Below the pieces are notes generated by a model. The model worked only from the letters and a program-made list of their open reading frames with translations. It searched no databases and was not told where the DNA came from. Below, in pieces: positions 21,556 through 64,000 of a DNA stretch of 64,000 nt. Position 1 is the first letter of the stretch; every line of letters starts with the position of its first letter. Both the position numbers and the translations under genes were made by a program. Origin of the DNA: Phyllobates terribilis (Eukaryota); NCBI RefSeq assembly GCF_046119375.1, contig NW_027362768.1:30566001-30630000 (forward strand), written 5' to 3'.

Positions 21556-21666
21556 CTGCTTACAAATTTTTAACTGCATCTAGCCCAGGAAATACTTTGT
21601 GCCTAGTAGCAGTGTCTGCTAGTCAGCGGATTATCCCGGCTGTTAAGCAAGCTACACCACCTGTAG

Positions 21667-21937
21667 TTTGGACACTTGATTTTTTCAAAGGAAATGCTTC
21701 GGGACCACGGGATACTTAGTGAAGAGCATCAGGAGGCACCCCAAGGCATAGAGGCTGGGACTGGCACTAGGATGCCTTGCGGTGGACAGCCGAGCTCGAT
21801 CCTTATAAAAGCTTTTTAACTGCAGCAGCTTTAGTGGACGCTACTGGAGCTGGAATTACGCGGCTGCTGGCATGAGACTTGCCCTCCAATAGATCCTTGT
21901 AAATGGATTTAAAGTGTATTCATTCAAATTAGAGGGA
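21667..21937 (-). pseudogene. Cargo: degraded 18S rRNA fragment, copy B
   Basis: GCTTTTTAACTGCAGCA..CGCTACTGGAGCTGGAATTACGCGGCTGCTGGCA..AGACTTGCCCTCCAAT.GATCCT..GGATTTAAAGTG is the reverse complement of the universally conserved SSU segment around GTGCCAGCAGCCGCGGTAA. Similarity continues through V4 to TTTGAAAAAAT. About 85% identity in the core by eye, against a remembered vertebrate 18S. Confidence 0.9.
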
Positions 21938-24900
21938 CAATTTAAATTAAAAAGCTTAGAGCTGCCTCCACCACAGGGGGGCTCGCTCGACCCACCAGCG
22001 GACAGGCACCAGTATTGGGAGAGGGGGGCTGGCCGTCAGGGTTCACCGCGGCTCTGGCACAAACCCGGCGACACGGAGGTGGCACGGGCAGGAGCGGACT
22101 GGCCGTCTCGGCTTCTCACTTTTTGGATTTTAGAAGGGCATGACATGCCTATATCTGTGTCTCCCCCTCCTTTTACTCCTCCACCTCTTTTCTTTTCGCA
22201 TGACTATATGTACTTGTCACTTTTCCATGTGTTAGTTGTGTCTTCTGAGCAGTTTGTCAGCTTTTGGACACCTTTGAAGGTGTTTTCTATGTGTTTCTAT
22301 GTGTTTTTGTTTGCCTGCCATTGGTTTTAACGGTGTTCGAAGGTGTTCGACGAACAGTTCGACGAACAGTTCGGCGAACACACGGGTGTTCGACGAACCG
22401 AACCGAACTCGAACACTACGGGGGTGGCTCAACACTACTCGTGTTATCTGTAACATTTGTCAGCAAAAGCTAAGTAGAGGCCAAAAAATACATAGTTTGA
22501 GTACTTCATGCATGAACCGGCACATGGACATGAAGCATAAGTTGCAGTGGGAAGCTCAGTGTGCTACAATGCGGCCTAGCCGGCCGGGCCAACCACCGTC
22601 TGCCATATCTTGTGCATCCGCGGCCTCTTCATCCTCTGTGACTGGGGGGACAGCAGTCACACCTGTTTTGAGGCGCAGACCTGCCACCTCTTTACCCGCA
22701 ACAGCCAGCGTGATTGGCAGGTCATCATTTTCTTTGGAGGTGGTAACACCAGCTGGTGTTGAGCGCTGTCCGACATCGATAGCACCACCTTTGGATCAAG
22801 GCAACCTAACATGTCTGCCTGCATCTTCCTCACAGATCGGCAGTTTGCCGGGGACACCCTTATCAACCCCGTCTAAGCACAATAGCCAGCCCTCGGTCCC
22901 TCAGATGTGGACAAGTAAAAGACCATTTCCTCCTAGCCATGAGAAGGCTAAGAGGTTGAATTTAACCATCTGCAAGCTCTTGGCTACAGAAATGCTGCCT
23001 TTCCGCCTGGTGGACACAGAGGATTTTCGAGACCTTATGTCCGTCGCAGTGCCCCAGTACCAGATGCCCAGTCGGCACTACTTCTCAAAGAAAGGTGTGC
23101 CTGCGCTCCACCAGCATGTCGCACACAACATCACCGCTTCTTTGAGAAACTCTGTGTGTGACAGGGTGCATTTCACCACAGACACTTGGACGAGTAGGCA
23201 TGGACAGGGGCGTTACATGTCGCTGACTGGGCACTGGGTAACTATGGTGACAGCAGGACAAGGGGCTGCTGTCCAAGTCTTGCCGTCCCCACGAGTTGTG
23301 CGTCAATCCTCTTTATGTCAAAGTTCCTCCACTGCTTCTGCCTCCTCAACCTCCTCTCGGTCTTCCACCTGCACCCAAAGCCTGTCTGGTCATGCCACAA
23401 GCTTTCTAACTGCGCAGAAGGGATCGTGCACACCTCCTTACTATGCTGGCAGTAGGGCTCAACGTCATCAGGCGGTTTTTACATTGAAATGTCTGGGAAA
23501 TGTGAGTCACACAGCTGAGTAGTTGTGGTCAGCTCTGGAGAACCAATTTCATGAATGGTTGTCTCCACTGGACCTGAAACCAGGGAAGGCCGTGTGCGAC
23601 AATGCTGCAAACCTGGGTGCGGCCCTTCGCCGGGGCAATGTCACACACGTGCCTTGTATGGCTCACGTGTTGAACCTGGTTGTCCAGCAATTTTTAGCCC
23701 ACTATCCCAGACTAGATGGCCTTCTGCAGAGGGCACGGTCGCTGTGTGCTCACTTCCGCCGTTCGCATCCCGCAGCTCAGCGACTTACATCTCTACAGAA
23801 GTCGTTGGGCCTGCCACTTCACCGGCTAAAATTCGATGTGCCTACCCGGTGGAATTCAACTCTGCACATGTTGCAGCGACTGTGGCAGCACCGACAAGCC
23901 CTGGTGCAATACGTTCTGACGTATAGCCTGGGCCAACGAGATTCAGAGGTGGGGCAAATCACGCTGGAGGAGTGGTCTCAGATCAGGGACCTATGCACCC
24001 TTCTGCACAGTTTTGAAATGGCGACGAAGATGTTTAGTGCTGACGATGCCATTATCAGCATGACTATTCCGGTGATTTACATGCTGGAGCACATGTTAAA
24101 CAGAATTCGGAGTCAGGTGGTGGCACAAGAGGAGGTGGAGGAAGTAGAGGAGGAGGAGTTGTATGCGGAAGGGCTAACATCTGCAAGGTCCAGACGGTCG
24201 GCAGCACCAAGGCGGCAGGCATGTGAGGGTGGGGGAGATGGTTTCACCAGGGCGCATGGTAGCAGCCAAACTAGTGAGGAAGGTGCAGGAGCCCAGGAAG
24301 AAGTGGAGGACGAACTGATGGAAGACTCATCAGATGAGGGAGACCTTGATCACATTTCTGTTGTGCGAGGTTGGGGGGAGAGGACAGAGGAAGGAAGCAT
24401 GATTGTTACCTCGCCACCAACACAACAGGGACTTGGTGCTCCTGGATGCGCAACACACATGAGTGCCTTCTTGCTGCACTACCTGCAACATGACCCTCAA
24501 ATTGTGAGAATTAGAAATAATCCTGACTACTGGGTTGCCACACTGTTAGATCCCCGGTACAAAAGTAAATTTGCAGAAATTATTCCTGCCATAGAAAGGG
24601 ATGCACGCATGCAGGAGTATCAGCAGAGACTGTTGCAGAATCTTACATGTGCTTTTCCACAAAATACCAGTGGTGCACGTAGTGAATCTCACAGTTCCAA
24701 CTTGCCAACCGTGGGACCGTCAAGTGTTCAGCATTCAAACCGTAACAGAACCACAGTATCTGCTGGTAACATCAATTTTGCGGAATCATTTCACCACTTT
24801 TTTAGCCCATCCTTTGCAAGGCCACAGGAGACAAGAAGTCTGACACATATTCAACGCCTAGAGACGATGGTACAGGAGTATCTCCAAGTAAACATTGAAG

Positions 24901-27900
24901 CCACGACTGTGTCACTGGACCCTTGCTCTTTTTGGGCTTCCAATCTGGATAAATGGCCGGAGCTAGCCACTTACGCCTTGGAGATCTTGTCATGCCCCGC
25001 AGCCAGCGTTCTGTCTGAACGTGTGTTCAGCGCTGCTGGTGGTGTGCTGACAGATAAGCGCACGCGGCTCTCCACTGTTAATGTAGACAGACTCACGTTC
25101 ATAAAGATGAACAAATCATGGATCCGAAACGACTTTTCTACCCCTGTGTCATCCTGGGGAGAGTAAAAACTTGATGATTGGTTAAAATCACCCTACCAAC
25201 CGTTTTAAGCTTTCAAATTACTAATCATGTTTATCTGTATCTTGGCTGGAAAATAATTTGGGCTTTGTAGCAGTGTGCAGCACTGATCCTATTAGGCCAT
25301 CTATACTAAAGCTTCACCAGATTTAAAATTAATAATAATTTTTAGCTGCATCTAGCCCGGAAAATAATTTTGGGGCTCCGAGATGCGCAAGACACATAAG
25401 TGCCTTCTTGCTGCACTACCTGCAGCATGACCCTCATATTGCCAGAATTCGAAGTAATCATGACTACTGGGTTGCCACACTCTTAGATCCCCCAAACTTT
25501 TCGATCAACATTTTCATTTTAATAAAGACCAAAAAAATGGTCATTTTTGAAATTATAAGCATTAGCAGGTTGTTAGAAACTGAAATCAAACAGTTTTCAA
25601 CTCAAAACTTTATTCTAGGTGATGTTACATTTTCACATAGGACCCCTTGTTCGAAAGGAGCTTCTGAACTCTCTCGTCCATTGAATTTGTCAGGTTTTGG
25701 ATGGTTTCTGCTTCAATTGTTTTGCATGAGGACAGAATACCCTCCCAGAGCTGTTGCTTAGATGTGAACTGCCTCCCGCCATCATAGACACTCCTTTTAA
25801 TGATGCTCCAAAGGTTCTGAATGGGGTACAGGTCAGGGGAGCATGGGGGTCACACCATAAGTTTGTCCCCTTTTATGCCCATATCAGCCAGAGATGCAGA
25901 TGTTTTATGTGCAGCATGAGATGGTGCATTATCATGCAGAAAAATGATCTTGCTGTGAAATACACGGTTCTTCTTCTTGAACCATGGCAGGAAGTGCTGT
26001 TTGAGAAAATCCACATACATTATGGAGTTCATCTTTAGCGCCTTCAGGGATCCTAAAGGGGCCGACAATCTCTCTCCCCATGATTCCAGCCCAAAACATT
26101 ACTCCACCTCCTCCTTGTTGGCGCTGTAGCCGTGTTTGCGTGGGGTGTCCATCAACCAGCCATCCTCCACTCCATCCATCTGGACCATCGAGCGCTGCAC
26201 GGCACTCATCCGTGAACAAAACAGTTTTGAAATCAGTCTTCATGTAATGTTTGGCCCACTGGAGCCGTTTCTGCTTGTGTGAAGTGGATAGAGGAGGTCG
26301 ACAGGATGGCGTATGCACAGCTGCAAACCTCTGAAGGACCCTGCATCTTGTTGTTCGGGGGACGTTGGAGGCACAAGCAGCTTCAAAAACTTGTCTGCTG
26401 CTATGACAAGGCTTTTTTGCCGCTGCTCTTTCAACCTGACGTAATTGCCTGTAGGAAAGAGTCCTCAATTTGCCCTTATCAGCACGCACACGTGTGTACT
26501 GTGAATCAGCTACATACTTCTTGATTGCCAAGACACTTCATCCTGATCATCGCAAAATGTTGAGTGTAGTCATGCCTTGACCTAAACACTCCACAATTTG
26601 TTGCTTCTCAGCAGCCGACACATCCTATTTCTTTCCCATTTTGGCAGAAAATGTAGGCTACTTAATAATGTGAGACAGCCTTCTTAAGTAGTCTTGCCTT
26701 TCATTGGACACACCTGCCAAACTAATTAGCACAGGTGTCTGCAATTGCTTACAGTGATATAAAGAGCCCTGACACACATCACCATCAATGAGTTTAACTG
26801 ACAAACAAACAAATTCTTCCCTTATCACTCCTAAACACTTTTTGCATAATAATTTGGAACGCAGTGTACATGTGCTTTTCCACAAAACACCAGTGGTTCA
26901 CGTAGTGAATCTTACAGTTCTAACTTGCCAACCATGGTCTGTATGGAGTTGTTCAATAAAGGGCCCAAAATTAAGATAACATAGATGGGAGAGGTCTCTA
27001 TGAATAGGAATTCCTAAGTATTTGATACCCTGTGAGGGCCAGGCAAAGGGAAAGTTGGACTGGATGGAATCCTATATGGATTTGGGGAGGGAGACCTCGA
27101 GGGCCTCAGACTTCGCTGCATTGATTTTAAAATTTGACCATGTAACAAAGTGATCTATTTCAGCCATAACAGCATGGATGGATATATGTGATTGAGTGAT
27201 ATATACTAGGACATCATCAGCAAATAGAGAGCACTTGTACTCGGTGCCTCCCACCTCAATCCACCTAATATTGGGGTTATGGCGAATTGATGAGAGCAGG
27301 TGCTCCGTCACTAGGATGTATAAGAGAGGGGACAGAGGACATCCCTGCCTTGTCCCATTGGTGATTGTGAAAGGTGATGAAAATGTTCTGATGCACCCCC
27401 TGGGCCTTGGGACACCCGGAGCCGGACCCTTTTTGGTGGATGCTGGTGGTTGTAGTCTTCGTGGCGGCGACCCGGTTCCGTGGCTCAGGGTGGTCAAACT
27501 AGTGGCGCAACTATTTATGTGGTTTTGATGTTTAAATGTCCGACTACGCCACCCGTGGATTGCGGTCAGAGTGAACCGCCGCTGCAGGGCAGACCGCTGA
27601 GGCTGGTGTTGTGGGTGCAGCAGAGCGTAGCATAACTCCCCACGGGAGGAGTATAGCCTCAGGGCAGTGTATGCGGAGGATGGGGGTGATGGTGCAGGGC
27701 AGCAGCAGTAACGACACGGAGTCAGTGATGCAGTCCAGGGCCTTTACTCACAGTTCTTATTATCCAGACCACGTCTGCAGGTAACGGCTGCCCACGTCGT
27801 ACTGTGCTCACCAGGTGAGGGGCTCAGACAACTCCCAGATAACTTTGGAGCGCTTCACAGGACCCCCTTTGTGTGTCCTTTGTCTGGCCTTTCTTACCAA

Positions 27901-28857
27901 CCCTTCTGTCCGGCTGCCTCGGGCCTCCTCTTGGTAAACTTGGCGCCAGTTTCCCTGACCCTATGTGGTGCCTTCCTAGCGGGTGTAGCGAGGGGCTGCG
28001 CCACATAAAATGTCACAGCCTCCGGTTTCTAGCTGAGGGTCGTTTCCTGCCTCCACTAGTTTCGGGTACCGGTCTCCCCCTTTGGCCTGACCCCTCCACG
28101 CAGGTGGATTCGGGCGTGCGGTGGCGACTCGCCCGTCCGCACCCCTGGGATCCCTTCATTCCTCGTTCCTGGAGCCTTCTCCGCTCCTCTTCCTTCCTTC
28201 TCCCTCTTCCAGGCCTGGGCCTCTGTTACTAGGCCCGCCTCCGGAGCAGAGCTCATGCAGAGCCTCTGCTCAGACTTCTCTGCACTGAACTAAGATGGTG
28301 CCCACCTTTTATACTCCCTTCTCAATGCACCCAGGAACTGCTTCCTCCCTGCTCCTGCACTACAGGGTTCCCCTTCCTCAGTGTTCCCTCCCCCCACTCC
28401 AGCCAGGGACAGGGACTGTCGTGCCCATCTCAGAGGCATATTGGTCGCCCTGCCCCACGGCAATGTGGTGTAATGCATGCAGGTGTCGGGTCCTGATCCA
28501 CACTCCATCCTTACCTGAGAGTGAGATATCACACCTCTGGGTGAGGTGCAATACCTCTGTAGCAACCGAGCCCTCAGGGTGCTACAGTTCCATTTATCTT
28601 CAGCCTAGGTGACGTATTGTGATACAGGGCCGTGATTTTGGCTATAAAAAGGTCCCCTAGACCCCTACCCCAAGCTTTTTAAGAGAATCATATATGGCGT
28701 GCCAGGAGACTCTATGGAATGCTTTCTCAGCATCCAACGAGAGTATCTAATTACAAATTTTTAACTGCATCTAGCCCAGGAAATACTTTGTGCCTAGTAG
28801 CAGTGTCTGCTAGTCAGCGGATTATCCCGGCTGTTAAGCAAGCTACACCACCTGTAG

Positions 28858-29128
28858 TTTAGACACTTAATTTTTTCAAAGGAAATGCTTTGGGACCATG
28901 GGATACTCAGTGAAGAGCATCAGGAGGCACCCCAAGGCATAGGGGCTGGGACTGGCAGTAGGATGCCTTGCGGTGGACAGCCGAGCTCGATCCTTATAAA
29001 AGCTTTTTAACTGCAGCAGCTTTAGTGGACGCTACTGGAGCTGGAATTACGCGGCTGCTGGCATGAGACTTGCCCTCCAATAGATCCTTGTAAATGGATT
29101 TAAAGTGTATTCATTCAAATTAGAGAGA
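28858..29128 (-). pseudogene. Cargo: degraded 18S rRNA fragment, copy A
   Basis: Near-identical to 21667-21937. Confidence 0.9.
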
Positions 29129-30323
29129 CAATTTAAATTAAAAAGTTTAGAGCTGCCTCCACCACAGGGGGGCTCACTCGACCCACCAGCGGACAGGCAC
29201 CAGTATTGGGAGAGGGGGGCTGGCCATCAGGGTTCACCGCGGCTCTGGCACAAACCCGGCGACACGGAGGTGGCACGGGCAGGAGCGGACTGGCCGTGTC
29301 GGCTTCTCACTTTTTGGATTTTAGAAGGGCATGACATGCCTATATCTGTGTCTCCCCCTCCTTTTACTCCTCCACCTCTTTTATTTTCGCATGACTATAT
29401 GTACTTGTCACTTTTCCATGTGTTAGTTATGTCTTCTGAGCAGTTTGTCAGCTTTTGGACACCTTTGAAGGTGTTTTCTATGTGTTTCTATGTGTTTTTG
29501 TTTGCCTGCCATTGGTTTTAACGGTGTTCGAAGGTGTTCGACGAACAGTTCGACGAACAGTTCGGCGAACACACGGGTGTTCGACGAACCGAACCGAACT
29601 CGAACACTACGGGGGTAGTTGTCCACTACTTTTACAATGATGCCCCCGCCGATCAGCTGTTATCGGTGCTGGCGGCAGCCGCCACCGGCTACAGGTACTT
29701 ACTTGCGATGCTTGGCTGTTTAGTTGTAGTGGCCACCGCGGGATACAACATCAGCCTCCCATTGAATTGAATAGGAGGCAAAGGTGAAGAAAGCTGACTG
29801 GACACATTGTCATGCTCTGGGTTTTGAAAATAACATCAATACAAGAAGAACTAAAGAATATAAGTAATACAAGGGGGTAGAAAAATAATGCCTAATTGCT
29901 GGGTACATGAAAAGAAAATTATGAATATAACTCCTGGACACTGAAAGTGCAACACCAGGAAGGAATAGTGGTGGAATTATGGAAATCACAGGATGGATAG
30001 ACATGCTAATGATGTGAAAAAATGCAAACAAAATATTCAAAACATCTTGATTTACTCATTATTGACAATGAGCTCTACACGCAACAATACACTTAAATGC
30101 CTTAGGATGCCATCAGTGAAGTCAATGGCTGTCAGAGGAATGGTAATTTACTTTGCTGCACTCCATAGGCTCTGTGCTTCTTTGGGGCAACTTCCCATCG
30201 AGTTAACAGCAAATCCAGAGACAAATTGTTTCCAAGGCACCAGAGAGATAATTTCATTCCTTTATTTATCCACATGCATCATAAAAGCAATGTTTCGGCC
30301 ACAAGCATAAGCATACTTACTTA

Positions 30324-47805: not shown

Positions 47806-50800
47806 ATGAGTGGAAAAAGGCCTGCTGCTGGTGGAAAGGGGAATAGGCGTGTTGGGAAGGGACAAAAAGGTTGTGTCTGTGGGGTAGGTGTTAAAGCAAC
47901 AGTAACATCTGCAGAAGAAAGACCATCTTCCAGCCAAACTAAAATGTCTACTTCTTTTAGCGGACAATGTGATAAGATCCCTTTCTTACGGCCACGCCAA
48001 TCGCTACAAATTCCAGATGAGGCACAAAAACAGCAGGTGCTTCAACGGATATCAAGTGCTCCTTTAAGTGGGCTCTCCTCCACATCAACTTCAACATCAC
48101 AAATACTCCAGTCCTCAAAGGTGTCACCCCAATCGCACTTGCTTCCTCACAGCTCCCAAATCTCCAGCTGCCCGTCTGAGTATGAGGTAGAACAGATGGT
48201 TGAGTCTGCAGAGCTGTTTACTCATACTATAGCCTGGGAATCAGAGGTCGACTCCAGCGCTTCTGTGAATCCAGACGAGGAAATGATCTGCACTGATGCC
48301 CAGAATCTTTATGAGTCGGATCCAGGACCAGACGCAGAAGGTTCTGACCATAATGTAGACCCTCATTCCCAAACTGTAACTCCTGTTGGTGGAGACAATG
48401 AGGAAGACGATGATAAGACTCAAATACCTGATTAGAGCGACAACTTTAGTTTTTTGTCAGGGCAGGAACAGGTTGGCTCTGAGGACGACGGGTGTGATAA
48501 CGCACAGGGTGATGATGATGAGGTTGGAGATCCCACTTACTGTCAACCCACAGTCAGCCAAGAGATGAGGTCAGCAGAGGAGGTGGAGGAAGATGCTAGT
48601 GACGACGAGGTCAGGTTGCGCCTTCCTGGACAGAGACGTAGTACTGGAAGCACGTCAACAACTGCATCCTCAAACACAACTCTGCCTCTCTCCACAAGTC
48701 GTAGTGGCTCTTCAGGTCGCATGGGTGCTAAGCCTTGCATAGCCTGGGCATTTTTTCAGATCAATAAAGATGACCCAACTCGTGTTATCTGTAACATTTG
48801 TCAGCAAAAGCTAAGTAGAGGCCAAAAAATACATAGTTTGAGTACTTCATGCATGAACCGGCACATGGATATGAAGCATAAGTTGCAGTGGGAAGCTCAG
48901 TGTGCTACAATGCGGCCTAGCCGGCCGCGCCAACCACCGTCTGCCATATCTTGTGCATCCGCGGCCTCTTCATCCTCTGTGACTGGGGGGACAGCAGTCA
49001 CACCTGTTTTGGGGCGCAGACCTGCCACCTCTTTACCCGCAACAGCCAGCGTGATTGGCAGGTCATCATTTTCTTTGGAGGTTACATAGTTACATAGTTT
49101 GTAAAGCCGAATAAAGACTTGCGTCCATCAAGTTCGACCTGTTAGTTCTGTAATTGCTAAAGTTGATCCAGAGGAGGGCAAAAACCCCAAATGATTTAGC
49201 CAATCTTCACCTGAGGAAAAATTCCCTCCCGACTCTGAAACCAGCAGTCAGAATAAATCCCTGTATCAACCTACTATTTTATTCTATTTTTAAGTATATG
49301 CTGAAATCTGCCTGGTATCTAGAAATGCATCCAGTCCCCGCTTGAACTGGTGTAGTGAATCTGACATTACCGTCTCCTCACTCAGTGAATTCCATATTCT
49401 CACTGCTCTTACCGTAAAGAACCCCTTCCTATGCTGGTGCTGAAACCTTTTCTCTTCCAGTCTTAGTGAATGCCCTCTTGTTACCGTAATATCCCTCCTT
49501 TTGAACAAATCCCGGGCAAGATCTCTATACTGTCCCCTAACATATTTGTACACATTTATTATGTCCCCCCTCAACCTTCTCTTTTCCAGGCTGAATAGTC
49601 CTAGTTTTGCCAACCTCTCTGGGTATTGCAGTCCCTCAATTCCCTTTATTAATTTTGTTGCCCTCCTTTGTACCTTTTCAAGCTCATTTATATCCTTTCT
49701 ATATATTGGGGCCCATAACTGAGCACAGTATTCCAAGTACAGACCCCTGTGGTACCCCACTAGTGACGCTTACCCAATCTGAGTATATTCCATTTATAAC
49801 CACCCTCTGCCTTCTATCCTTTAGCCAGTTAGCTACCCACTTGCAGACATTTTCCCCCAGCCCCATCATTCTCATTTTGTATACCAACCTATTATGTGGC
49901 ACGCTATCGAACGCTTTTGAGAAGTCGAGATACACGACATCCACTGGTTCCCCCTGATCTACTCGAGAGCTAACCTCCTCGTAGAAGTCAATCAGGTTTG
50001 TTTGGCAGGAGCGATTCCTCATGAATCCATGTTGGTTCGGGGTTAATAGATTATTAGCGTCAAGATGCTCCATGATTGCCTCATTAATAAAGCCTTCAAA
50101 AATTTTGCCCACAACGGACGTCAGACTCACCGGCCGATAGTTTCCGGTGTTACTTTTTGCTCCCTTTTTGAATATTGGCATTACATTCGCCTGTCGCCAA
50201 TCAAGTGGTACAGACCCAGTCTCAACAGAGTCCTTAAATATAAGATATAACGGTCTGTCTATCACATTACTTAGTTCCCTTAGTACCCGTGGGTGTATGC
50301 CATCAGGTCCTGGTGATTTGTTTATTTTAATGTTTATTTTAATGTTACTGAGGCGTTTCTGTACCCCAGCTTGGGTTAGATTTGTCATACTTAGTGGAGG
50401 ATTAAGCTTGTCACTTCTCATTTCGCCTGTTAGTTCTTTTTCTTTTGTGAAAGTTGACGAAAAAAAATTTATTTAATAGATTAGCTTTATCCTCATCTTT
50501 CTCTATGATTTTGCCTTCATCACTTTTTATCGGTCCAATATTATTCGATTTAATCCTTTTACTATTTATATACGTAAAGAACAGTTTGGGATTTGATCTA
50601 CTTTCCCTAGCAATACGTCTCTCTGTTTCCTCCTTTGCTATTTTTATTTGTTTTTTGCAGGTTCTCGTTTTTTCCTTGTAACACATTAGTGCCTTCTTGC
50701 TGTTTTCCTGTTTTAATCTCTTGAATGCCTCTTTTTTGCTATTTAACGCCCCTTTTACGTTCTTATTCAACCATATTGGTTTCCTCTTATTTCTGGCCCT

Positions 50801-53800
50801 TTTATTCCCATACGGTATATACCTCTCGCACTGAGTATTCAGAATTCTTTTGAAGGTTTCCCATCTACTATTCGTATTTCCTTGATTAAGAACTTTGTCC
50901 CAGTCTATAAGTTGAAGGTTTTCTTTCAGCTGATCAAACTTCGCCCTCCTAAAGTTTAATGTTTTAGTCGTTCCCTTATTGATAACCCTACTGAAGGGCA
51001 TTTTGAAATTGATAATATTATGATCGCTATTACCTAGGTGCCCCCCTATCTGTACCTCAGTTATTCTATCAGGCCTATTAGTCAATATTAAGTCCAACAC
51101 TGCCTTCCCTCTCGTTGGTTCCTGCACTAGTTGGGAGAGATAATTATCCTTGATATTTGTCAAGAACCTTTTTCCTTTCTGCGATCTACAGGTTTCTGTT
51201 TCCCAGTCAATATCCGGGTAGTTGAAGTCCCCCATTACAATCACCTCATTATGTTTTGCTACTTTGTCTATTTGTCCTAATAGCAGTTTCTCATTCTCCT
51301 CTGTTATATTGGGTGGCTTATAGCAGACCCCCAGTAATATTTTATTATTATTTTTTGCCCCCTCTATCTCTACCCACATGGACTCGACCCCCTCTTCTCC
51401 CTCTCCTATATCTTCCCTTAGTCTGGGCTTTAGACGTGACTTTACATATAAGCAGACTCCTCCGCCCTTCCCCTGTTTCCGGTCCCTTCTAAATAAACTA
51501 TAATCTGTTAAATTTACCGCCCAGTCGTAGCTATCGTCTAGCCAAGTCTCTGTTATACCTACGATGTCATACCTCTCCTCCGATATAAGCGCCCGCAGCT
51601 CATCCGCCTTATTGGTCAGGCTTCTTGCGTTGGTCAGCATGCAGGTGGGAACACCAGCTGGTGTTGAGCGCTGTCCGACATCGATAGCACCACCTTTGGA
51701 TCAAGGCAACCTAACATGTCCGCCTGCATCTTCCTCACAGACCGGCAGTTTGCCGGGGACACCCTTATCAACCCCGTCTAAGCACAATAGCCAGCCCTCG
51801 GTCCCTCAGATGTGGACAAGTAAAAGACCATTTCCTCCTAGCCATGAGAAAGCTAAGAGGTTGAATTTCACCATCTGCAAGCTCTTGGCTACAGAAATGC
51901 TGCCTTTCCGCCTGGTGGACACAGAGGATTTTCGAGACCTTATGTCCGTCGCAGTGCCCCAGTACCAGATGCCCAGTCGGCACTACTTCTCAAAGAAAGG
52001 TGTGCCTGCGCTCCACCAGCATGTCGCACACAACATCACCGCTTCTTTGAGAAACTCTGTGTGTGACAGGGTGCATTTCACCACAGACACTTGGACGAGT
52101 AGGCATGGACAGGGGCGTTACATGTCGCTGACTGGGCACTGGGTAACTATGGTGACAGCAGGACAAGGGGCTGCTGTCCAAGTCTTGCCGTCCCCACGAG
52201 TTGTGCGTCAATCCTCTTTATGTCAAAGTTCCTCCACTGCTTCTGCCTCCTCAACCTCCTCTCGGTCTTCCACCTGCACCCAAAGCCTGTCTGGTCATGC
52301 CACAAGCTTTCTAACTGCGCAGAAGGGATCCTGCACACCTCCTTACTATGCTGGCAGTAGGGCTCAACGTCATCAGGCGGTTTTTACATTGAAATGTCTG
52401 GGAAATGTGAGTCACACAGCTGAGGAGTTGTGGTCAGCTCTGGAGAACCAATTTCATGAATGGTTGTCTCCACTGGACCTGAAACCAGGGAAGGCCGTGT
52501 GCGACAATGCTGCAAACCTGGGTGCGGCCCTTCTCCGGGGCAATGTCACACACGTGCCTTGTATGGCTCACGTCTTGAACCTGGTTGTCCAGCAATTTTT
52601 AGCCCACTATCCCAGACTAGATGGCCTTCTGCAGAGGGCATGGTCGCTGTGTGCTCACTTCCGCCATTCGCATCCCACAGCTCAGCGACATACATCTCTA
52701 CAGAAGTCGTTGGGCTTGCCACTTCACCGGCTAAAATGCGATGTGCCTACCCGGTGGAATTCAACTCTGCACATGTTGCAGCGACTGTGGCAGCACCGAC
52801 AAGCCCTGGTGCAATACGTTCTGTCGTATAGCCTGGGCCAACGAGATTCAGAGGTGGGGCAAATCACGCTGGAGGAGTGGTCTCAGATCAGGGACCTATG
52901 CACCCTTCTGCACAGTTTTGAAATGGCGACGAAGATGTTTAGTGCTGACGATGCCATTATCAGCATGACTATTCCGGTGATTTACATGCTGGAGCACATG
53001 TTAAACAGAATTCGGAGTCAGGTGGTGGCACAAGAGGAGGTGGAGGAAGTAGAGGAGGAGGAGTTGTATGCGGAAGGGCTAACATCTGCAAGGTCCAGAC
53101 GGTCGGCAGCACCAAGGCGGCAGGCATGTGAGGGTGGGGGAGATGGTTTTACCAGGGCGCATGGTAGCAGCCAAACTAGTGAGGAAGGTGCAGGAGCCCA
53201 GGAAGAAGTGGAGGACGAACTGATGGAAGACTCATCAGATGAGGGAGACCTTGATCACATTTCTGTTGTTCGAGGTTGGGGGGAGAGGACAGAGGAAGGA
53301 AGCATGATTGTTACCTCGCCACCAACACAACAGGGACTTGGTGCTCCTGGATGCGCAACACACATGAGTGCCTTCTTGCTGCACTACCTGCAACATGACC
53401 CTCGAATTGTGAGAATTAGAAATAATCCTGACTACTGGGTTGCCACACTGTTAGATCCCCGGTACAAAAGTAAATTTGCAGAAATTATTCCTGCCATAGA
53501 AAGGGATGCACGCATGCAGGAGTATCAGCAGAGACTGTTGCAGAATCTTACATGTGCTTTTCCACAAAATACCAGTGGTGCACGTAGTGAATCTCACAGT
53601 TCCAACTTGCCAACCGTGGGACCGTCAAGTGTTCAGCACTCAAACCGTAACAGAACCACAGTATCTGCTGGTAACATCAATTTTGCGGAATCATTTCACC
53701 ACTTTTTTAGCCCATCCTTTGCAAGGCCACAGGAGACAAGAAGTCTGACACATAGTCAATGCCTAGAGACGATGGTACAGGAGTATCTCCAAGTAAACAT

Positions 53801-54071
53801 TGAAGCCACGACTGTGTCACTGGACCCTTGCTCTTTTTGGGCTTCCAATCTGGATAAATGGCCGGAGCTAGCCACTTACGCCTTGGAGATCTTGTCATGC
53901 CCCGCAGCCAGCGTTCTGTCTGAACGTGTGTTCAGCGCTGCTGGTGGTGTGCTGACAGATAAGCGCACGCGGCTCTCCACTGATAATGTAGACAGACTCA
54001 CGTTCATAAAGATGAACAAATCATGGATCCGAAATGACTTTTCTACCCCTGTGTCATCCTGGGGAGAGTAA
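47806..54071 (+). pseudogene. hAT transposase of copy C (47806-49082 + 51647-54071), disrupted
   Basis: TGG>TAG at 48433-48435 and the CR1 insertion. Confidence 0.93.
49083..51642 (-). mobile_element. CR1-clade LINE, 5' truncated, internally deleted
   Basis: APE endonuclease (TNARSL, GITETW, MGDFNYPDIDW, LDLILTN, SDHN); RT (YRPVSLTS, YLDFSKAFD, SGVPQGSVLG); C-terminus LFSLEKRRLRGD; (ACTATGTA)n tail at 49081-49099; AGGT duplicated at 49079-49082 and 51643-51646; +1 frameshift in the A8 run at 50460-50467. Confidence 0.95.
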
Positions 54072-57000
54072 AAGCTTGATGATTGGTTAAAATCACCCTA
54101 CCAACCGTTTTAAGCTTTCAAATTACTAATCATGTTTATCTGTATCTTGACTGGAAAATAATTTGGGCTTTGTAGCAGTGTGCAGCACTGATCCTATTAG
54201 GCCATCTATACTAAAGCTTCACCAGATTTAAAATTAAAAATAATTTTTAGCTGCATCTAGCCCGGAAAATAATTTTGGGGCTCCGAGATGCGCAAGACAC
54301 ATAAGTGCCTTCTTGCTGCACTACCTGCAGCATGACCCTCATATTGTCAGAATTCGAAGTAATCATGACTACTGGGTTGCCACACTCTTAGATCCCCCAA
54401 ACTTTTCGATCAACCTTTTCATTTTAATAAAGACCAAAAAAATGGTCATTTTTGAAATTATAAGTATTAGCAGGTTGTTAGAAACTGAAATCAAACAGTT
54501 TTCAACTCAAAACTTTATTCTAGGTGATGTTACATTTTCACATAGGACCCCTTGTTCGAAAGGAGCTTCTGAACTCTCTCGTCCATTGAATTTGTCAGGT
54601 TTTGGATGGTTTCTGCTTCAATTGTTTTGCATGAGGACAGAATACCCTCCCAGAGCTGTTGCTTAGATGTGAACTGCCTCCCGCCATCATAGACACTCCT
54701 TTTAATGATGCTCCAAAGGTTCTGAATGGGGTAGAGGTCAGGGGAGCATGGGGGTCACACCATAAGTTTGTCCCCTTTTATGCCCATATCAGCCAGAGAT
54801 GCAGATGTTTTATGTGCAGCATGAGATGGTGCATTATCATGCAGAAAAATGATCTTGCTGTGAAATTCACGGTTCTTCTTCTTGAACCATGGCAGGAAGT
54901 GCTGTTTGAGAAAATCCACATACATTATGGAGTTCATCTTTAGCGCCTTCAGGGATCCTAAAGGGGCCGACAATCTCTCTCCCCATGATTCCAGCCCAAA
55001 ACATTACTCCACCTCCTCCTTGTTGGCGCTGTAGCCGTGTTTGCGTGGGGTGTCCATCAACCAGCCATCCTCCACTCCATCCATCTGGACCATCGAGCGC
55101 TGCACGGCACTCGTCCGTGAACAAAACTGTTTTGAAATCAGTCTTCATGTAATGTTTGGCCCACTGGAGCCGTTTCTGCTTGTGTGAAGTGGATAGAGGA
55201 GGTCGACAGGATGGCGTATGCACAGCTGCAAACCTCTGAAGGACCCTGGATCTTGTTGTTCGGGGGACGTTGGAGGCACAAGCAGCTTCAAAAACTTGTC
55301 TGCTGCTATGACAAGGCTTTTTTGCCGCTGCTCTTTCAACCTGACGTAATTGCCTGTAGGAAAGAGTCCTCAATTTGCCCTTATCAGCACGCACACGTGT
55401 GTACTGTGAATCAGCTACATACTTCTTGATTGCCAAGACACTTCATCCTGATCATCGCACAATGTTGATTGTAGTCATGCCTTGACCTAAACACTCCACA
55501 ATTTGTTGCTTCTCAGCAGCCGACACATCCTTTTTCTTTCCCATTTTGGCAGAAAATGTAGGCTGCTTAATAATTTGAGAGAGCCTTCTTAAGTAGTCTT
55601 GCCTTTCATTGGACACACCTGCCAAACTAATTAGCACAGGTGTCTGCAATTGCTTACAGTGATATAAAGAGCCCTGACACACATCACCATCAATGAGTTT
55701 AACTGACAAACAAACAAATTCTTCCCTTATCACTCCTAAACACTTTTTGCATAATAATTTGGAACGCAGTGTACATGTGCTTTTCCACAAAACACCAGCG
55801 GTTCACGTAGTGAATCTTACAGTTCTAACTTGCCAACCGTGGTCTGTATGGAGTTGTTCAATAAAGGGCCCAAAATTAAGATAACATAGATGGGAGAGGT
55901 CTCTATGAATAGGAATTCCTAAGTATTTGATACCCTGTGAGGGCCAGGCAAAGGGAAAGTTGGACTGGATGGAATCCTATATGGATTTGGGGAGGGAGAC
56001 ATCGAGGGCCTCAGACTTCGCTGCATTGATTTTAAAATTTGACCATGTAACAAAGTGATCTATTTCAGCCATAACAGCATGGATGGATATATGTGATTGA
56101 GTGATATATACTAGGACATCATCAGCAAATAGAGAGCACTTGTACTCGGTTCCTCCCACCTCAATCCACCTAATATTGGGGTTATGGCGAATTGATGAGA
56201 GCAGGTGCTCCGTCACTAGGATGTATAAGAGAGGGGACAGAGGACATCCCTGCCTTGTCCCATTGGTGATTGTGAAAGGTGATGAAAATGTTCTGACGCA
56301 CCCCCTGGGCCTTGGGACACTCGGAGCCGGACCCTTTTTGGTGGATGCTGGTGGTTGTAGTCTTCGTGGCGGCGACCCGGTTCCGTGGCTCAGGGCGGTC
56401 AAACCAGTGGCGGAACTATTTATGTGGTTTTGATGTTTAAATGTACGACTACGCCACCCGTGGATTGCGGTCAGAGTGAACCGCCGCTACAGGGCAGACC
56501 GCTGAGGCTGGTGTTGTGGGTGCAGCAGAGCGTAGCATAACTCCCCACGGGAGGAGTATAGCCTCAGGGCAGTGTATGCGGAGGATGGGGGTGATGGTGC
56601 AGGGCAGCAGCAGTAACGACACGGAGTCAGTGATGCAGTTCAGGGCCTTTACTCACAGTTCTTATTATCCAGACCACGTCTGCAGGTAACGGCTGCCCAC
56701 GTCATACTGTGCTCACCAGGTGAGGGGCTCAGACAACTCCCAGATAACTTTGGAGCACTTCACAGGACCCCCTTTGTGTGTCCTTTGTCTGGCCTTTCTT
56801 ACCAACACTTCTGTCCGGCTGCCTCGGGCCTCCTCTTGGTAAACTTGGCGCCAGTTTCCCTGACCCTATGTGGTGCCTTCCTAGCGGGTGTAGCGAGGGG
56901 CTGCGCCACATAAAATGTCAGAGCCTCCGGTTTCTAGCTGAGGGTCGTTTCCTGCCTCCACTAGTTTCGGGGACCGGTCTCCCCCTTTGGCCTGACCCCT

Positions 57001-57671
57001 CCACGCAGGTGGATTCGGGCGTGCGGTGGTGACTCGCCCGTCCGCACCCCTCATGCAGAGCCCCTGCTCCCTGCCACTACTGCTCAGACTTCTCTGCACT
57101 GAACTAAGATGGTGCCCACCTTTTATACTCCCTTCTCAATGCACCCAGGAACTGCTTCCTCCCTGCTCCTGCACTACAGGGTTCCCCTTCCTCAGTGTTC
57201 CCTCCCCCCACTCCAGCCAGGGACAGGGACTGTCGTGCCCATCTCAGGGGCATATTGGTCGCCCTGCCCCACGGCAATGTGGTGTAAAGCATGCAGGTGT
57301 CGGGTCCTGATCCACACTCCATCCTTACCTGAGAGTGAGATATCACACCTCTGGGTGAGGTGCAATACGTCTGTAGCAACCGAGCCCTCAGGGTGCTACA
57401 GTTCCATTTATCTTCAGCCTAAGTGACGTATTGTGATACAGGGCCGTGATTTTGGCTCTAAAATGGTCCCCTAGACCCCTACCCCAAGCTTTTTAAGAGA
57501 ATCATATATGGCGTGCCAGGAGACTCTATGGAATGCTTTCTCAGCATCCAACGAGAGTATCTAATTACAAATTTTTAACTGCATCTAGCCCAGGAAATAC
57601 TTTGTGCCTAGTAGCAGTGTCTGCTAGTCAGCGGATTATCCCGGCTGTTAAGCAAGCTACACCACCTGTAG

Positions 57672-57942
57672 TTTAGACACTTAATTTTTTCAAAGGAAAT
57701 GCTTCGGGACCATGGGATACTTAGTGAAGAGCATCGGGAGGCACCCCAAGGCATAGGGGCTGGGACTGGCAGTAGGATGCCTTGCGGTGGACAGCCGAGC
57801 TCGATCCTTATTAAAGCTTTTTAACTGCTGCAACTTTAGTGGACGCTACTGGAGCTGGAATTACGCGGCTGCTGGCATGAGACTTGCCCTCCAATAGATC
57901 CTTGTAAATGGATTTAAAGTGTATTCATTCAAATTAGAGAGA
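57672..57942 (-). pseudogene. Cargo: degraded 18S rRNA fragment, copy C
   Basis: Near-identical to 21667-21937. Confidence 0.9.
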
Positions 57943-58597
57943 CAATTTAAATTAAAAAGCTTAGAGCTGCCTCCACCACAGGGGGGCTCGCTCGACCCAC
58001 CAGCGGACAGGCACCAGTATTGGGAGAGGGGGGCTGGCCATCAGGGTTCACCGCGGCTCTGGCACAAACCCGGCGACACGGAGGTGGCACGGGCAGGAGC
58101 GGACTGGCCGTGTCGGCTTCTCACTTTTTGGATTTTAGAAGGGCATGACATGCCTATATCTGTGTCTCCCCCTCCTTTTACTCCTCCACCTCTTTTATTT
58201 TCGCATGACTATATGTACTTGTCACTTTTCCATGTGTTAGTTGTGTCTTCTGAGCAGTTTGTCAGCTTTTGGACACCTTTGAAGGTGTTTTCTATGTGTT
58301 TCTATGTGTTTTTGTTTGCCTGCCATTGGTTTTAACGGTGTTCGAAGGTGTTCGACGAACAGTTCGGCGAACACACGGGTGTTCGACGAACCGAACTCGA
58401 ACACTACGGGGGTGGCTCAACACTACCCTGCAGCTGTTGGGAAAATGTAACTACCAGCAGGACATGATGGCAGATAACATTTCACAACAGCTGGAGTATC
58501 GCAGGTTGCTGACCCCTTGTCTACAGCTACACTTTTTGTCATCACTTGTAGTTTAAGACTTCTTTATTAGTTTCTATTTCTGCTTCATGTTTTTCAG

Positions 58598-58798
58598 ATT
58601 TTGACTCATGCCAACTGTCAATGGATAAAATTGTACAGAATAATTTGGTCATATCTAAGAGTGTATCTATTGGGAAAGCCTATAACAATGGTGATTATAT
58701 CCTCTCTCGATGTAAAGCCAATCATTATCGTGCATCCCCAACTTTGAAAGTGGAATGTTTAAATGGTGAAATAATCTATCCAAAATGTACTCAGGAAA
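58598..58798 (+). CDS. Exon encoding one sushi/CCP domain (factor H CCP20 / F13B-like subtype)
   Basis: Acceptor TTTTTCAG ending 58597; GTAAG donor at 58799; 201 bp, phase 1-1. Translates FDSCQLSMDKIVQNNLVISKSVSIGKAYNNGDYILSRCKANHYRASPTLKVECLNGEIIYPKCTQE. Confidence 0.88.
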
Positions 58799-59299
58799 GT
58801 AAGTATATTGTTTTCTGTGTTTAGTTAAACTTTTTAGACATTAGTAAAAAAACACTTAAGGAGAGACCTGTCAGTCTAAGGGATGGGGTCGGGGAAATAT
58901 CACTTGGGACTGGACACTTGGAAAAGTCATCTGATACATTTAGTTCACGGCAGGCATTTCAAAGTATGCTTTTTTTCTGAAACACTGCAGTGTTTCAGAG
59001 TTCAGTGGGAAACATACACGACTGCAATAACACAACCAGTGTCTAATTCTTACTGGGATGGTTCCGTCACTATGAAACTACTGTAAGGATCAGTTTAAAT
59101 CTGTGAAATATGCATATACTGCACATCGGGGTTTCCATTAAATCTTCTAAAAACAGGATTTAGACAGAACCCTTGATGAAACCATTCACTGCAATGAGGC
59201 AGATTGAGTCACTTTAGACTCCATCTGGCCTTTTTCCAGGTGGTCGCCCATCTTTTTAGGAATACACAAAAGTTCAATTGAAAAAAAGAGAGAAGAAAA

Positions 59300-60230
59300 G
59301 CGCGCTGTGTGAAGGACCAGATGGACAATTTAAGAGTTGAAGACAGCCAAGAGGCCACTCAGCTGCTGGGGTTGTGCACCCCTGCACAACTCCGGTGACT
59401 GCCACAAGATGGGGAGAGGAGACAAGGTGAGCCTCACTGCGTGGTGCAGGCCGGTGAGCTTGCCACGTGCTGTGTGCTGCGGACAGCTGGCTGTGCCCGC
59501 CACTTCCGGGTTGGCCGCAACCTCGTGACTCAGGACTGAATGCGCGTCAGCGCAGGTCCTGTGAGTCTGGGAGAAGGCGGCACCCTTGTCGCAGGTCCTC
59601 AATTAATGAGTGAGATGGTTGCAGGGATGATTGGGAAAATGATCCAAAAAGCTGCTCCTGACGCTGACCCCCAAGAGGGATTAAAAACTATGTGAGGAGA
59701 AAAAAAGAGTGTGGTCTATGGAGCGCTGGAGTGATCACTGGAACAGGCAGATTGGGGCTAAAAACATTTAATAAGCCCTTTCCACAATGTGTTTCGATAG
59801 TAAACTATCTTCATCAGGTGGTACAAGGGTATGAGCATAGAATAAAATATATATAGATAAAGCTTCACAATAATAGGTTGGTATACTAATTGGTCTTACA
59901 ATGATTGGTTAAACTGCTGATTAATTGAACCTGAGTTCACAAGGAACACTTCATGTGCCGGTGTGTATGTGCCTTAAAGCCGCACATAGACAACCTTCAC
60001 ATGAATTCAAAGATCAAGAACACATTGGATAAGACGTGAAATATAGTAATACATATTAATAAACAATATGAAAAAATACATTATTAGTATAAAATACACA
60101 CACAAAAAAATTCAAAAGATAAAAATTTTGTTGTGTTGTGACATATGAAAATAATGATGAAGGAAAAAGAGAAGAGAGGGAAAAGGGGGGGGGGGTAGAA
60201 TGAGTGGAAACAATATGAAGGGGGAAGGAC
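59300..60230 (-). mobile_element. Probable PLE pseudo-LTR, inverted relative to the adjacent PLE ORF
   Basis: Contains a minus-strand hammerhead motif and abuts the + strand PLE RT. Boundaries approximate. Confidence 0.55.
59782..59821 (-). ncRNA. Minimal hammerhead ribozyme motif (decayed)
   Basis: Minus strand: ccac CTGATGA a gatag-ttta-ctatc GAAA cacatt gtgg. CGCG has decayed to CACA. Confidence 0.75.
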
Positions 60231-61490
60231 AAAATCACTAAGAGCTGATCACATTTTCAAGGGCCAAATTCAGACCTTCAGGGGCTAATGTGCCCAATTT
60301 GAAAATTCAAAAAACTTTACCTTCACAGAACCCCCCTCCCCCACAACTAATTCAGAGGTTGAACCAGTGCATGTAGATGTACATGGATATTCGAGTAAAT
60401 TCTGTCCATTACATCATAAAGGTTCTCATATTGAAACATTTCAACAACTCATTCTAAAGGACATTCGGTCCTTTGAGCATCTAAAAATTAGGGATAATTT
60501 AAGTCCTGGTGAAAGACGGGCCATTACTTCACTGAGGAACAATCAAAATCTTATCATTAAGAGTGCAGATAAGGGGGGTGTAGTATTAATGAACAGAGGC
60601 TGGTATCTTGGGGAGGGAAGAAGAATCTTGAATGATTATGATTATTATGAAACGTTATCCCATGACCCTTCGGTTTGATATTCCTGAAATACAAGGAACT
60701 TATTAAAAACGCACATGCTAATAGTCTTTTTAAAAAAAAGAGAAGAAATTTTTAGATATAACACAATTCAGGGTCCCCTTCTTCTATTTCCTCCCCAAGA
60801 TACACAAAAGCCCTACAAACCCCCCCGGCCGCCCAATCATCTCGGGAATTGGTTCTATTACTAGCAATCTCTCCCATTATGTTGATCTCTTTCTTCAGAA
60901 ATATGTCCTCAAACTTGATGCATACCTGAGAGAATCTTCTCAACTGATTAAGCTCCTAAGAGGTCTCCACCCCATGAACAATTGTCTCATTTTGACCCTT
61001 GATGTCAGTGCCCTTTACAGCAATATGTAAAGAGAGGAGAGAACAAGGCACAATGGGTGACTCAGTATTGCAATTGTTAGAGGGGTGTGGGAATGGCTAC
61101 TAACCTTATGAAGTTGTGCACCTCTGCACAACCCCAGTGTAAAGCTCCACAAGCTCCGCTCTGTTGGTGGCTGTGAGCTAATTCCAGCAGCGTTCACAGA
61201 TCCTGATCTCACGGTGTTGGATCACGTGGTCAGGTTAGTTGCATGTAACGCCGAGATGGACGCCCAGCTTCACCAACACCCCCGGCAGCGTTCCTGAGGG
61301 GTTAGGGCAGCGCATTTTGGAAAACCAGGGTAGTAATTCTAATTAAATTCCTCCCACAGGTGAAAGAACAATTAATTAAAGGCAGCTCTACCGCACCCCA
61401 ACAAGGGGAAGGGACAATCAGTAAATGTGAATAGCAGTACCAGAGCGCCAATAACAGGGCAAAAATATTAAAAGGACTGATTTATTAATA

Positions 61491-61532
61491 CACACAACGC
61501 GTTTCGGTGGACACAGCCACCTTCATCAGGTG
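61491..61532 (-). ncRNA. Minimal type I hammerhead ribozyme motif, core intact
   Basis: Minus strand: cac CTGATGA a ggtgg-ctgtgt-ccacc GAAA CGCG TT gtg; palindromic ACGCGT stem III; GUU triplet. Confidence 0.85.
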
Positions 61533-61533
61533 A

Positions 61534-61575
61534 CACCTGATGAAGGTGGCATTGTCCTTCGAAACGAGTTATGTG
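61534..61575 (+). ncRNA. Inverted, mutated copy of the hammerhead motif
   Basis: cac CTGATGA a ggtgg-cattgt-ccttc GAAA CGAG TT atg; stems I, II and III each carry mismatches. Confidence 0.65.
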
Positions 61576-61848
61576 TATTAATAAATCAGTCCTTTTAATA
61601 TTTTTGCCCTGTTATTGGTGCTCTGTTACCGCTATTCACATTTACATTACAGCAATATATCCCATGAATTGGGGTTGAAAGCGGTCGAACATTTTTTGTC
61701 AACCGATACCAATATTCCAGCTGAGCAAAAGAACTTTCTCAAAACATCTATTATGTTCATACTAAACAATAATGTATTCACTTTTGAAGGGGTGGTTTAC
61801 CGTCAGATAAGGTGCTGTGCGATGAGGACGAGATTCACCCCCAGTTAC

Positions 61849-64000
61849 TAGTGTTGAGCGAACATGCTCGACACTGCTCGGTACTCGCCCGAGCATCACG
61901 CTACTCGGGATGTTCGGCGAGCACCGAGCATTTCTGGGTTACTCGGGCGGGAGCTCGGGTCTCCGCCCTGCATGTTTGGCGCTCTTTACAGAGCCAATGA
62001 ACATGCAGGGATTGCCAGCCAGTCACTGTAATGCTGCAGCCATGTTGGTTGTGGGCATTACAGTGATTGGCTGGCCGCACAGCGTCACCTCGAGTATTTA
62101 AAACCGGGCGCCTCCATCTTGGACACAGTCGCTCCGGATTAGACAGTGTAGGGACAGCGCTGCTGATTTAGGGAGAGATATAAACTGCGAAATAGTTAGT
62201 GTAGGGTCTGTAAAGGCTGCCAGAACAAACAAACAGTCCTTTTCAGGACTAATATCCATCCCAGATACCAGGCATGCAGGCTGTATAGGAGACACAGTGG
62301 TTATACCAGCAAACGCTGCATTACAGTCCTGTGTGCTCCTGTTGCTGAAATTGCTGGACTTAGCACCAGGTGTCGGGGGCCAGGAAAAATCCTTTTTTTT
62401 TCATCTAAATCCTCCTTTTTTTTTCCTCCTTCACACTGTACAAATACCCGTCTTATTAACCTTTTGGTGTCCCCCCCCCCCCCCCAAAAAAAAGGTTGTC
62501 TCTGATTTTTCAGACACAAATATAACTGTTGAAAATAGTCTGGTGTAGGCTAGAGAAACAGAAGTGTTGTTTTGCACTTCCACGGGTCAAATTGCTGTAC
62601 TATCCAGTTTTGGGCCTTTAGTATCTAAAAAAAAAAGCAGTTTGAGTGTGTCGCTCACTGTTCAGCCGCAAATATCTCTATTTAAAAAAGTGTGGTATAC
62701 CCCAGTAAACAATAACTGTGGTTTTGCCATCCCACGGTAAAAAATCTCTATTATTCAGCTTTTGGTAGTTTTTTCCGTAAAGAAAACAGTAGTGTCTCCT
62801 GACTGTTGTGACACAAATATATATCTGTTGAAAATAGTCTTGTGTAGGCCCGACATTTCAGTGTGGTTTCGCAGTTCCACAGGTCAAATCGCTGTACTAT
62901 CCAGTTTTGGGCCTTTGGTATCTAAAAAAAAAGCAGTTTGAGTGTGTCGCTCACTGTTCAGCCGCAAATATCTCTATTTAAAAAAGTGTGGTATACCCCA
63001 GTAAACAATAACTGTGGTTTTGCCATCCCACGGTAAAAAATCTCTATTATTCAGCTTTTGGAAGTTTTTTCCGTAAAGACAAACAGTAGTGTCTCCTGAC
63101 TGTTGTGACACAAAAATATATCTGTTGAAAATAGTCTTGTGTAGGCCCGACATCCCAGTGTGGTTTCGCAGTTCCACGGGTCAAATCGCTGTACTATCCA
63201 GTTTTGGGCCTTTGGTATCTAAAAAAAAAAGCAGTTTGAGTGTGTCGCTCACTGTTCAGCCGCAAATATCTCTATTTAAAAAAGTGTGGTATACCCCAGT
63301 AAACAATAACTGTGGTTTTGCCATCCCACGGTAAAAAATCTCTATTATTCAGCTTTTGGTAGTTTTTTCCGTAAAGAAAAACAGTAGTGTCTCCTGATTG
63401 TTGTGACACAAAAATATATCTGTTGAAAATAGTCTTGTGTAGGCCCGACATCCCAGTGTGGTTTCGCAGTTCCATGGGTCAAATCACTGTACTATCCAGT
63501 TTTGGGCCTTTGGTATCTAAAAAAAAAGCAGTTTGAGTGTGTCGCTCACTGTTCAGCCGCAAATATCTCTATTTAAAAAAGTGTGATATACCCCAGTAAA
63601 CAATACCTGTGGTTTTGCCATCCCACGGTAAAAAATCTCTATTATTCAGCTTTTGGTAGTTTTTTCCGTAAAGAAAAACAGTAGTGTCTCCTGACTGTTG
63701 TGACACAAAAATATATCTGTTGAAAATAGTCTTGTGTAGGCCCGACATCCCAGTGTGGTTTCGCAGTTCCACGGGTCAAATCGCTGTACTATCCAGTTTT
63801 GGGCCTTTGTTATCTAAAAAAAAAGCAGTTTGAGTGTGTCGCTCACTGTTCAGCCGCAAATATCTCTATTTAAAAAAGTGTGGTATACCCCAGTAAACAA
63901 TAACTGTGGTTTTCCTCTTCCACGGTTCTAATCTACTCTTTATTACCCTTTTTCCATTGATAGTGCAAGTGTAAGCTATTTTACTTCATTTACAATGGGC
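61849..64000 (+). mobile_element. Left end of a second hAT family, probably extending beyond the window
   Basis: TIR TAGTGTTGAGCG at 61849; dense CTCGG/CCGAG subterminal motifs; followed by a tandem array. Confidence 0.8.
62500..63915 (+). repeat. About 298-bp tandem array, about 4.7 units
   Basis: TTGAAAATAGTC at 62529, 62828, 63125, 63423, 63720. Confidence 0.93.

Follow-up and report, generated by a model that had tools for sequence, protein, structure and literature searches.

Within the RT gene of a decayed Penelope-like element (PLE) lies a 620-bp insert that ends in a long palindrome with two hammerhead ribozyme motifs back to back. Does this arrangement mark a dedicated mobile unit whose RNA makes use of its ribozymes, or is it what one PLE insertion left behind? 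A sequence-only reading of the locus had proposed the former. We examined the insert within the window, the whole 64-kb stretch of DNA analysed here, and in public sequencing runs, and think it probable that it is a dead-on-arrival product of a Neptune-clade PLE, made of two head-to-head, 5'-truncated pseudo-LTR (pLTR) pieces (506 + 113 bp) within a 12-bp target-site duplication (TSD), with the palindrome as a by-product.

Insert boundaries, target site and coding content

The insert (61027-61646) is bracketed by a direct repeat whose identity extends over exactly 12 bp (Table 1); 13-mers no longer match, and the chance of such a repeat at a fixed place is about 1e-7. When the insert and one copy of the repeat are deleted in silico, the host RT frame becomes continuous again through LDVSALYSNI, and the repeat is therefore a true TSD, as the sequence-only reading had it. 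With A or T at 9 of its 12 positions, it points to an AT-rich target.

The insert is non-coding, again as had been claimed: its longest stop-free stretch over six frames is 65 aa, and none of 120 PLE proteins matches inside it at E<1. No further copy of its family was found elsewhere in the 64-kb window. The 6-mers TGTAAA and TTTACA at its ends raised a DIRS or MITE origin, which was rejected, in the light of the general traits of those elements, on the 12-bp TSD, the pLTR homology described below and the one-sided palindrome.

Table 1. Coordinates of the insert, its parts and the surrounding host element in the window.
Feature	Position	Strand	Evidence or remark
Host's inverted 5'-truncated copy: endonuclease end, 3' UTR, decayed hammerhead, pLTR	59285..60336	-	tblastn, hammerhead scan, alignment
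Host Neptune-type PLE, N-terminal part and RT before insert	60325..61026	+	decayed: stops, frameshifts
Left TSD copy	61015..61026	+	exact 12-mer match with 61647-61658
Long piece (506 bp), apparent 5'-truncated Neptune-type pLTR	61027..61532	-	colinear with host pLTR; contig depth step
Left arm, part of long piece	61421..61532	+	1 difference in 105 nt against deepest X8 contig (record 27)
Minimal type I hammerhead	61493..61532	-	core 61529-61523; helix II 5 bp; GAAA 61505-61502
1-nt apex spacer, the inversion junction	61533	.	family depth drops after 61533; native sequence diverges
Short inverted piece (113 bp): right arm 61534-61645 and one extra base	61534..61646	+	decayed hammerhead 61534-61573
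Right TSD copy	61647..61658	+	exact 12-mer match with 61015-61026
Host RT after insert	61659..61848	+	tblastn matches from 104 of 120 proteins; frame restored

The host element and the identity of the insert

The host appears to be a Neptune-type PLE. For its RT 385 relatives were found, the best named ones being mostly frog RT/GIY-YIG proteins, which makes a frog the probable source of the DNA; the part before the insert was matched in tblastn by 92 and by 120 of the 120 proteins used. A Cys-rich linker before GIY-YIG, given as a Neptune/Nematis feature in excerpts of PMC8557442, is present in 56 of the 120 listed host RT relatives, many of the other records being partial; the linker region of the host itself lies outside the window. 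Pfam returned no RT match for the three host fragments, and in ESM Atlas the only matches were to hypothetical eukaryote clusters and DUF8422. The TSD, the RT relatives and the protein matches support the claim that non-coding DNA was inserted here into the RT gene of a PLE and was mobilised by a PLE.

The host is itself arranged head to head, with a plus copy running from about 60325 and a minus copy from about 60336, and the insert repeats this architecture in miniature. In the minus copy the last ~25-29 aa of the endonuclease lie at 60336-60250 and a decayed hammerhead at 59821-59782. The endonuclease remnant gave 14 weak tblastn matches at E<5 (best E 0.005), the best 12 of which all lie no more than 9 aa from the C-terminus.

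On the minus strand, the alignment of the insert with the pLTR of this host copy extends from one end to the other (61536-61029 against 59824-59285) and scores 147.7, which was reached in none of 1,000 shuffles (maximum 107); the maximum in 174 window tiles was 91. Without the ribozyme the score was 118.5, again reached by 0 of 1,000 shuffles (maximum 92). Because of this colinearity the insert appears, as judged from its sequence, to consist of a piece of pLTR from a younger, related Neptune-type family and a short inverted copy of that piece's start, an identity that comes from the homologue behind the endonuclease C-terminus and not from the insert's own parent. The long piece runs from the hammerhead at 61532 to the far 3' end of the family at 61027.

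A third Neptune-type PLE 3' remnant, comprising an endonuclease end, was observed at 1119-1547 (+), and ~900 bp downstream of it lies a decayed GUU-type hammerhead (2433-2490; 2441). With a GUU motif behind this remnant as well, GUU would be the norm for these families. Alignment of the remnant with the insert gave no convincing pLTR match, the scores of 61-80 being within background. On the other side, host RT homology ends at ~61850 at unrelated sequence (61850-64000), probably a later insertion; a tandem array of 297-bp units in ~5 copies occupies 62473-63960.

Copies of the family in public sequencing runs

Part of the insert is contained in 20 of 24 listed public runs, from seven studies and two organisms, none of which holds at least half of its sequence words. 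Contigs of four runs were compared over 60750-61580, with the right junction and the empty-site joint lying beyond this range: X1 and X2 are DNA runs, and X8 and X17 are RNA runs by guess only, from which no expression is inferred. The insert belongs to a high-copy family. In X1 the summed contig depth, which is no copy number, was 1,200-57,900 over the insert against 85-596 over the host RT flank, and in X2 21,100-208,100 against 252-2,372; in both DNA runs it goes up ~100-fold at 61027-61030, on the insert boundary. One X2 contig (record 20) covers 179 nt of host flank without a difference and may come from this very locus, either carrying the insert or lacking it.

Different flanks join the left end of the family at 61027 in X8 and at 61026 in X17, the second organism, which makes this left end a family end. 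Two more ends, at 61414 and 61416, are each present in one X8 contig among the ends listed, and depth is raised over the arm region (~900-2,200 against 74 in X8, less so in X1 and X2, not at all in X17), which suggests a second end class near the stop of the short arm. The two 3' ends in the insert differ by ~390 nt, both being at or near recurrent ends listed, and a short tail may be present among other loose ends of the family.

Very high depth that increases over the arm region is what a non-autonomous family would give, whether pLTR-only, SINE-like or retrozyme-monomer-like, mobilised by Neptune and with the palindrome made anew at each insertion. There are precedents in Xenopus retrozymes, which are pLTR-derived with dispersed monomers (bioRxiv 10.64898/2026.07.22.740005), and in the putative non-autonomous PLEs of Chlamydomonas found in excerpts of PMC8557442. 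We nevertheless consider such a family unlikely: according to PMC4209133 and bioRxiv 10.64898/2026.07.22.740005, pLTR fragments become far more numerous than ORFs through 5' truncation alone, the homologue in the host immediately follows an endonuclease C-terminus and 3' UTR, and there is neither a tandem unit at the locus nor a wrap-around joint among the four joints listed.

Whether the palindrome travels with the family or was made at this locus can be read from the sequence beyond the apex. Past 61532, the contigs of X8 and X17 (two of the four runs, among the loose ends listed) continue with identical, non-palindromic sequence. This native upstream sequence was seen for 26-42 nt and begins with TGACA, the five letters at the apex of the insert. 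Depth falls across the apex from 54,000-89,000 to 27-92, partly as a mapping effect, and one X8 contig contains another opposite-strand head-to-head joint, the geometry of which differs from that of the insert. Since the family continues non-palindromically past the apex and the other joint is built differently, the palindrome looks locus-made. These observations, the fall in depth included, speak against the dedicated unit moving as a 620-bp palindrome that the sequence-only reading had put forward, although both ends of the insert, at or near recurrent family ends, would suit it.

The palindrome arms and their differences

A recount of the palindrome gave the same figures as had been reported before, namely two arms of 112 bp (61421-61532 and 61534-61645) separated by 1 nt, with nine mismatches (61436, 61440, 61447, 61495, 61499, 61507, 61508, 61514 and 61515), six of them inside the ribozyme part. 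The letters at 61423 and 61427 are common to both arms and absent from ~90% or more of the family depth, which fits the copying of both arms from one molecule. The single difference of the left arm from the deepest X8 contig is taken to be 61436, which leaves eight of the nine to the right arm (binomial ~0.04, two-sided, by hand); the differences are also clustered (p=0.03), with two doublets among them. Plain neutral decay from arms that were once identical accounts poorly for this one-sided, clustered pattern. The right-arm excess may have come from error-prone synthesis or repair of the second strand, from a second template or from base-calling error.

Contig coverage is zero at 61562-61580 in all four runs, where right-arm records may be placed on the left arm, and this gap, together with the one-sidedness, clustering and doublets, could be taken to mean that sequencing or assembly of the hairpin produced the right arm, or its differences, in part. 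That is very improbable, given that the unit as a whole is enclosed by a clean 12-bp TSD and a restored host frame, that its right end, mirroring 61421 and near the family ends at 61414 and 61416 in X8, reproduces a natural family end, and that at 61436 the family letter is on the right arm and missing from the left, a state that an artefact of fold-back reads would not produce. The insert's private letters are absent from X1 and X2; these are collapsed contigs, in which hairpins are badly represented and rare variants dropped, and further copies with the same apex are possible.

Hammerhead motifs and predicted RNA folding

The minus-strand motif has a CUGAUGA core, a helix II, a palindromic 15-16 region (ACGCGU) and an NUH site, here GUU, with a putative cut between 61496 and 61495. 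Its helix I is 3 bp at the locus, short of the 4-5 bp of a minimal type I hammerhead; in the family, helix I is 5 bp, as read by eye from the loose-end contig sequence past 61532, and it is shortened here because the palindrome junction cuts it. The plus-strand motif has lost its palindrome and is broken in both helices, I and II, and in loop 3. The full core and ACGCGT palindrome claimed for the minus motif are therefore present, and the plus copy is broken as described, but the 3-bp helix I means that the minus motif cannot be called fully intact.

A structure-aware scan of the window returned three motifs (8123+, 59817- and 61529-), missing the plus copy at the apex, and found no hammerhead in 30 of 30 shuffled windows. 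Rfam returned no hammerhead family at its gathering cut-off or at E<=10, the only hits being miRNA-type hairpins far below cut-off. Elsewhere in the window, a type I hammerhead motif with a 6-bp helix I and a GUC site was observed at 8112-8168 (+), and the surrounding 7982-8405 forms a partial tandem of 333-bp period in which 7982-8072 matches 8315-8405 at 94.5%; this hammerhead repeat looks like a retrozyme-type monomer.

The sequence-only reading also held that the RNA toggles between self-cleavage and a dsRNA that masks the ribozyme. The two motifs are on opposite strands, so that any one RNA has one in sense and the other in antisense, and a dimer in cis is impossible. RNA read through the apex is predicted to be a hairpin throughout (~-170 kcal/mol), in which all ribozyme pairs have probability 0.0, which leaves no two-state choice; for RNA starting at the apex the predicted probability is ~0.09 for helix II and 0.002 for helix I. 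In the predicted co-fold in trans, the palindromic ACGCGU loop pairs between molecules and the active fold does not form. A fixed 620-bp palindromic non-autonomous unit with a toggling RNA might draw on that loop pairing and on a left motif that is nearly intact, but with only 3 bp of helix I, the predicted pairing probabilities and the family's native context against it, we regard it as very unlikely.

The back-to-back ribozyme palindrome is most likely an insertion scar and not a working RNA switch. On the folding model, read-through RNA would form one long hairpin without ribozyme activity, and such hairpin RNA might feed silencing if transcribed. Excerpts of PMC4209133 report poor cleavage by minimal PLE hammerheads even as dimers, and in bioRxiv 10.64898/2026.07.22.740005 eight of nine Xenopus retrozyme dimers did not cleave.

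A proposed course of the insertion

For the dead-on-arrival insertion of two inverted pLTR pieces we propose the following course. A PLE endonuclease would nick the two strands of AT-rich DNA with a stagger of 12 bp. RT would prime at the family's far 3' end (61027), copy ~500 nt of RNA and halt just past the hammerhead, where it would fold back on the nascent cDNA at the tiny native TG-A-CA symmetry. Some 112 nt of nascent cDNA would then be copied as the inverted arm, and the product would be joined to the other target strand near the second preferred family end, where it shares the microhomology TTTAC with the target. The palindrome and second ribozyme would be by-products. We infer the fold-back, the order of events and the autonomy of the parent. 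As an alternative to fold-back, the short arm may have been primed from the second nick, since PLE extension occurs on both target strands in PMC11167929. In the same paper the tail is defined by two internal start sites, and the ribozyme acts with the help of protein and is dispensable for insertion in vitro.

Similar products are on record. Excerpts of PMC3846280 describe head-to-head pLTRs with junction palindromes, 8-10-bp TSDs, solo pLTRs and a secondary insertion into another Penelope copy, with the junction palindromes read as self-priming, and those of PMC8557442 describe inverted 5'-truncated PLE copies.

The apex of the insert lies 4 nt before the hammerhead core. Tentatively, and with the balance of probability against it, this course might be generalised to frog Neptune-type PLEs having two RT start sites ~390 nt apart, a preferential stop and fold-back at the 5' edge of the hammerhead, and an error-prone second strand. 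If that were true, the ribozyme fold would be a structural landmark of integration and not a cutter, and the tail would be ten times the canonical length. As it stands, the insert is of little consequence, a further example of a truncated and inverted PLE insertion, and its value is that of a compact record of PLE integration. Should apexes prove genome-wide to cluster by the 5' edge of the hammerhead, the ends to fall into two classes ~390 nt apart and the fold-back arm to carry an excess of changes, testable rules for head-to-head formation would follow, and a role would be suggested for a ribozyme that, in PMC11167929, insertion in vitro can do without.

Other features of the window

Three copies (97-99% identical) of a 7-kb RT-bearing element, two of them in tandem, were observed at 15234-29630 and 51640-58426; near one end of every copy Rfam identifies an 18S rRNA-like fragment (21838-21957, 28818-29181 and 57632-57995). 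Fragments at 49852-50593 (-) match one PLE-relative protein record (P0119) and may represent another domain of that record, not PLE. A short Cys-containing frame at 58552-58824 (+) may resemble a sushi/complement-control exon, and a degenerate 213-bp palindrome at 7673-7885, 67% self-complementary, is MITE-like.

Comparison with known systems

The non-LTR retrozymes of animals, as represented by excerpts of PMC7229834 and bioRxiv 10.64898/2026.07.22.740005, are like the insert in being non-coding and pLTR-related, with a type I hammerhead and a TSD of more than 4 bp. They are, however, head-to-tail tandems in which same-strand ribozymes release monomers and circles, whereas the insert is head-to-head with one near-intact motif and, as folded in silico, would not be able to release them. 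An origin of the insert as a tandem non-LTR retrozyme was rejected: it contains no internal direct repeat of unit size, its motifs are on opposite strands and one of them passes the scan.

With minimal PLE hammerheads the insert shares the CUGAUGA core, an extra base after position 9, the G10.1-C11.1 pair, the palindromic 15-16 region and a short helix I; it differs from the known ones in its GUU triplet and in a helix I that the junction shortens to 3 bp. Schistosoma has dual hammerhead motifs on opposite strands, as does the insert, and portions of PMC4209133 report opposite-strand dual minimal hammerheads, most motifs being single. The insert's two motifs are adjacent, with cores 7 nt apart, against ~100-700 bp in known minimal hammerheads. 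Within the literature covered, which leaves most subscription papers and Repbase outside, neither adjacent back-to-back hammerheads in frog Neptune stumps nor a 390-nt tail was found.

The inverted-pLTR insertions of the EN+ PLEs Pen2, Pen2a and Pen3a in Adineta vaga, as far as excerpts of PMC3846280 and the scheme in PMC8557442 describe them, likewise have a TSD of about ten bases and an inverted 5'-truncated copy at the 5' end. Also in common are a palindrome at the inverted junction, unequal pLTRs and insertion into another PLE copy (excerpts of PMC3846280). Unlike the Adineta vaga PLEs, the insert is without any ORF, has an arm of 112 bp, is placed in the Neptune clade and probably comes from a frog, and the extra length of its long piece is ~390 nt as against the usual 30-40-nt tail. 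Three traits of an EN+ PLE inverted-pLTR insertion are present nonetheless, with a pLTR containing a hammerhead, a head-to-head 5'-truncated copy with a junction palindrome and a short AT-rich TSD, and the insert works like an inverted-pLTR PLE insertion of known type.
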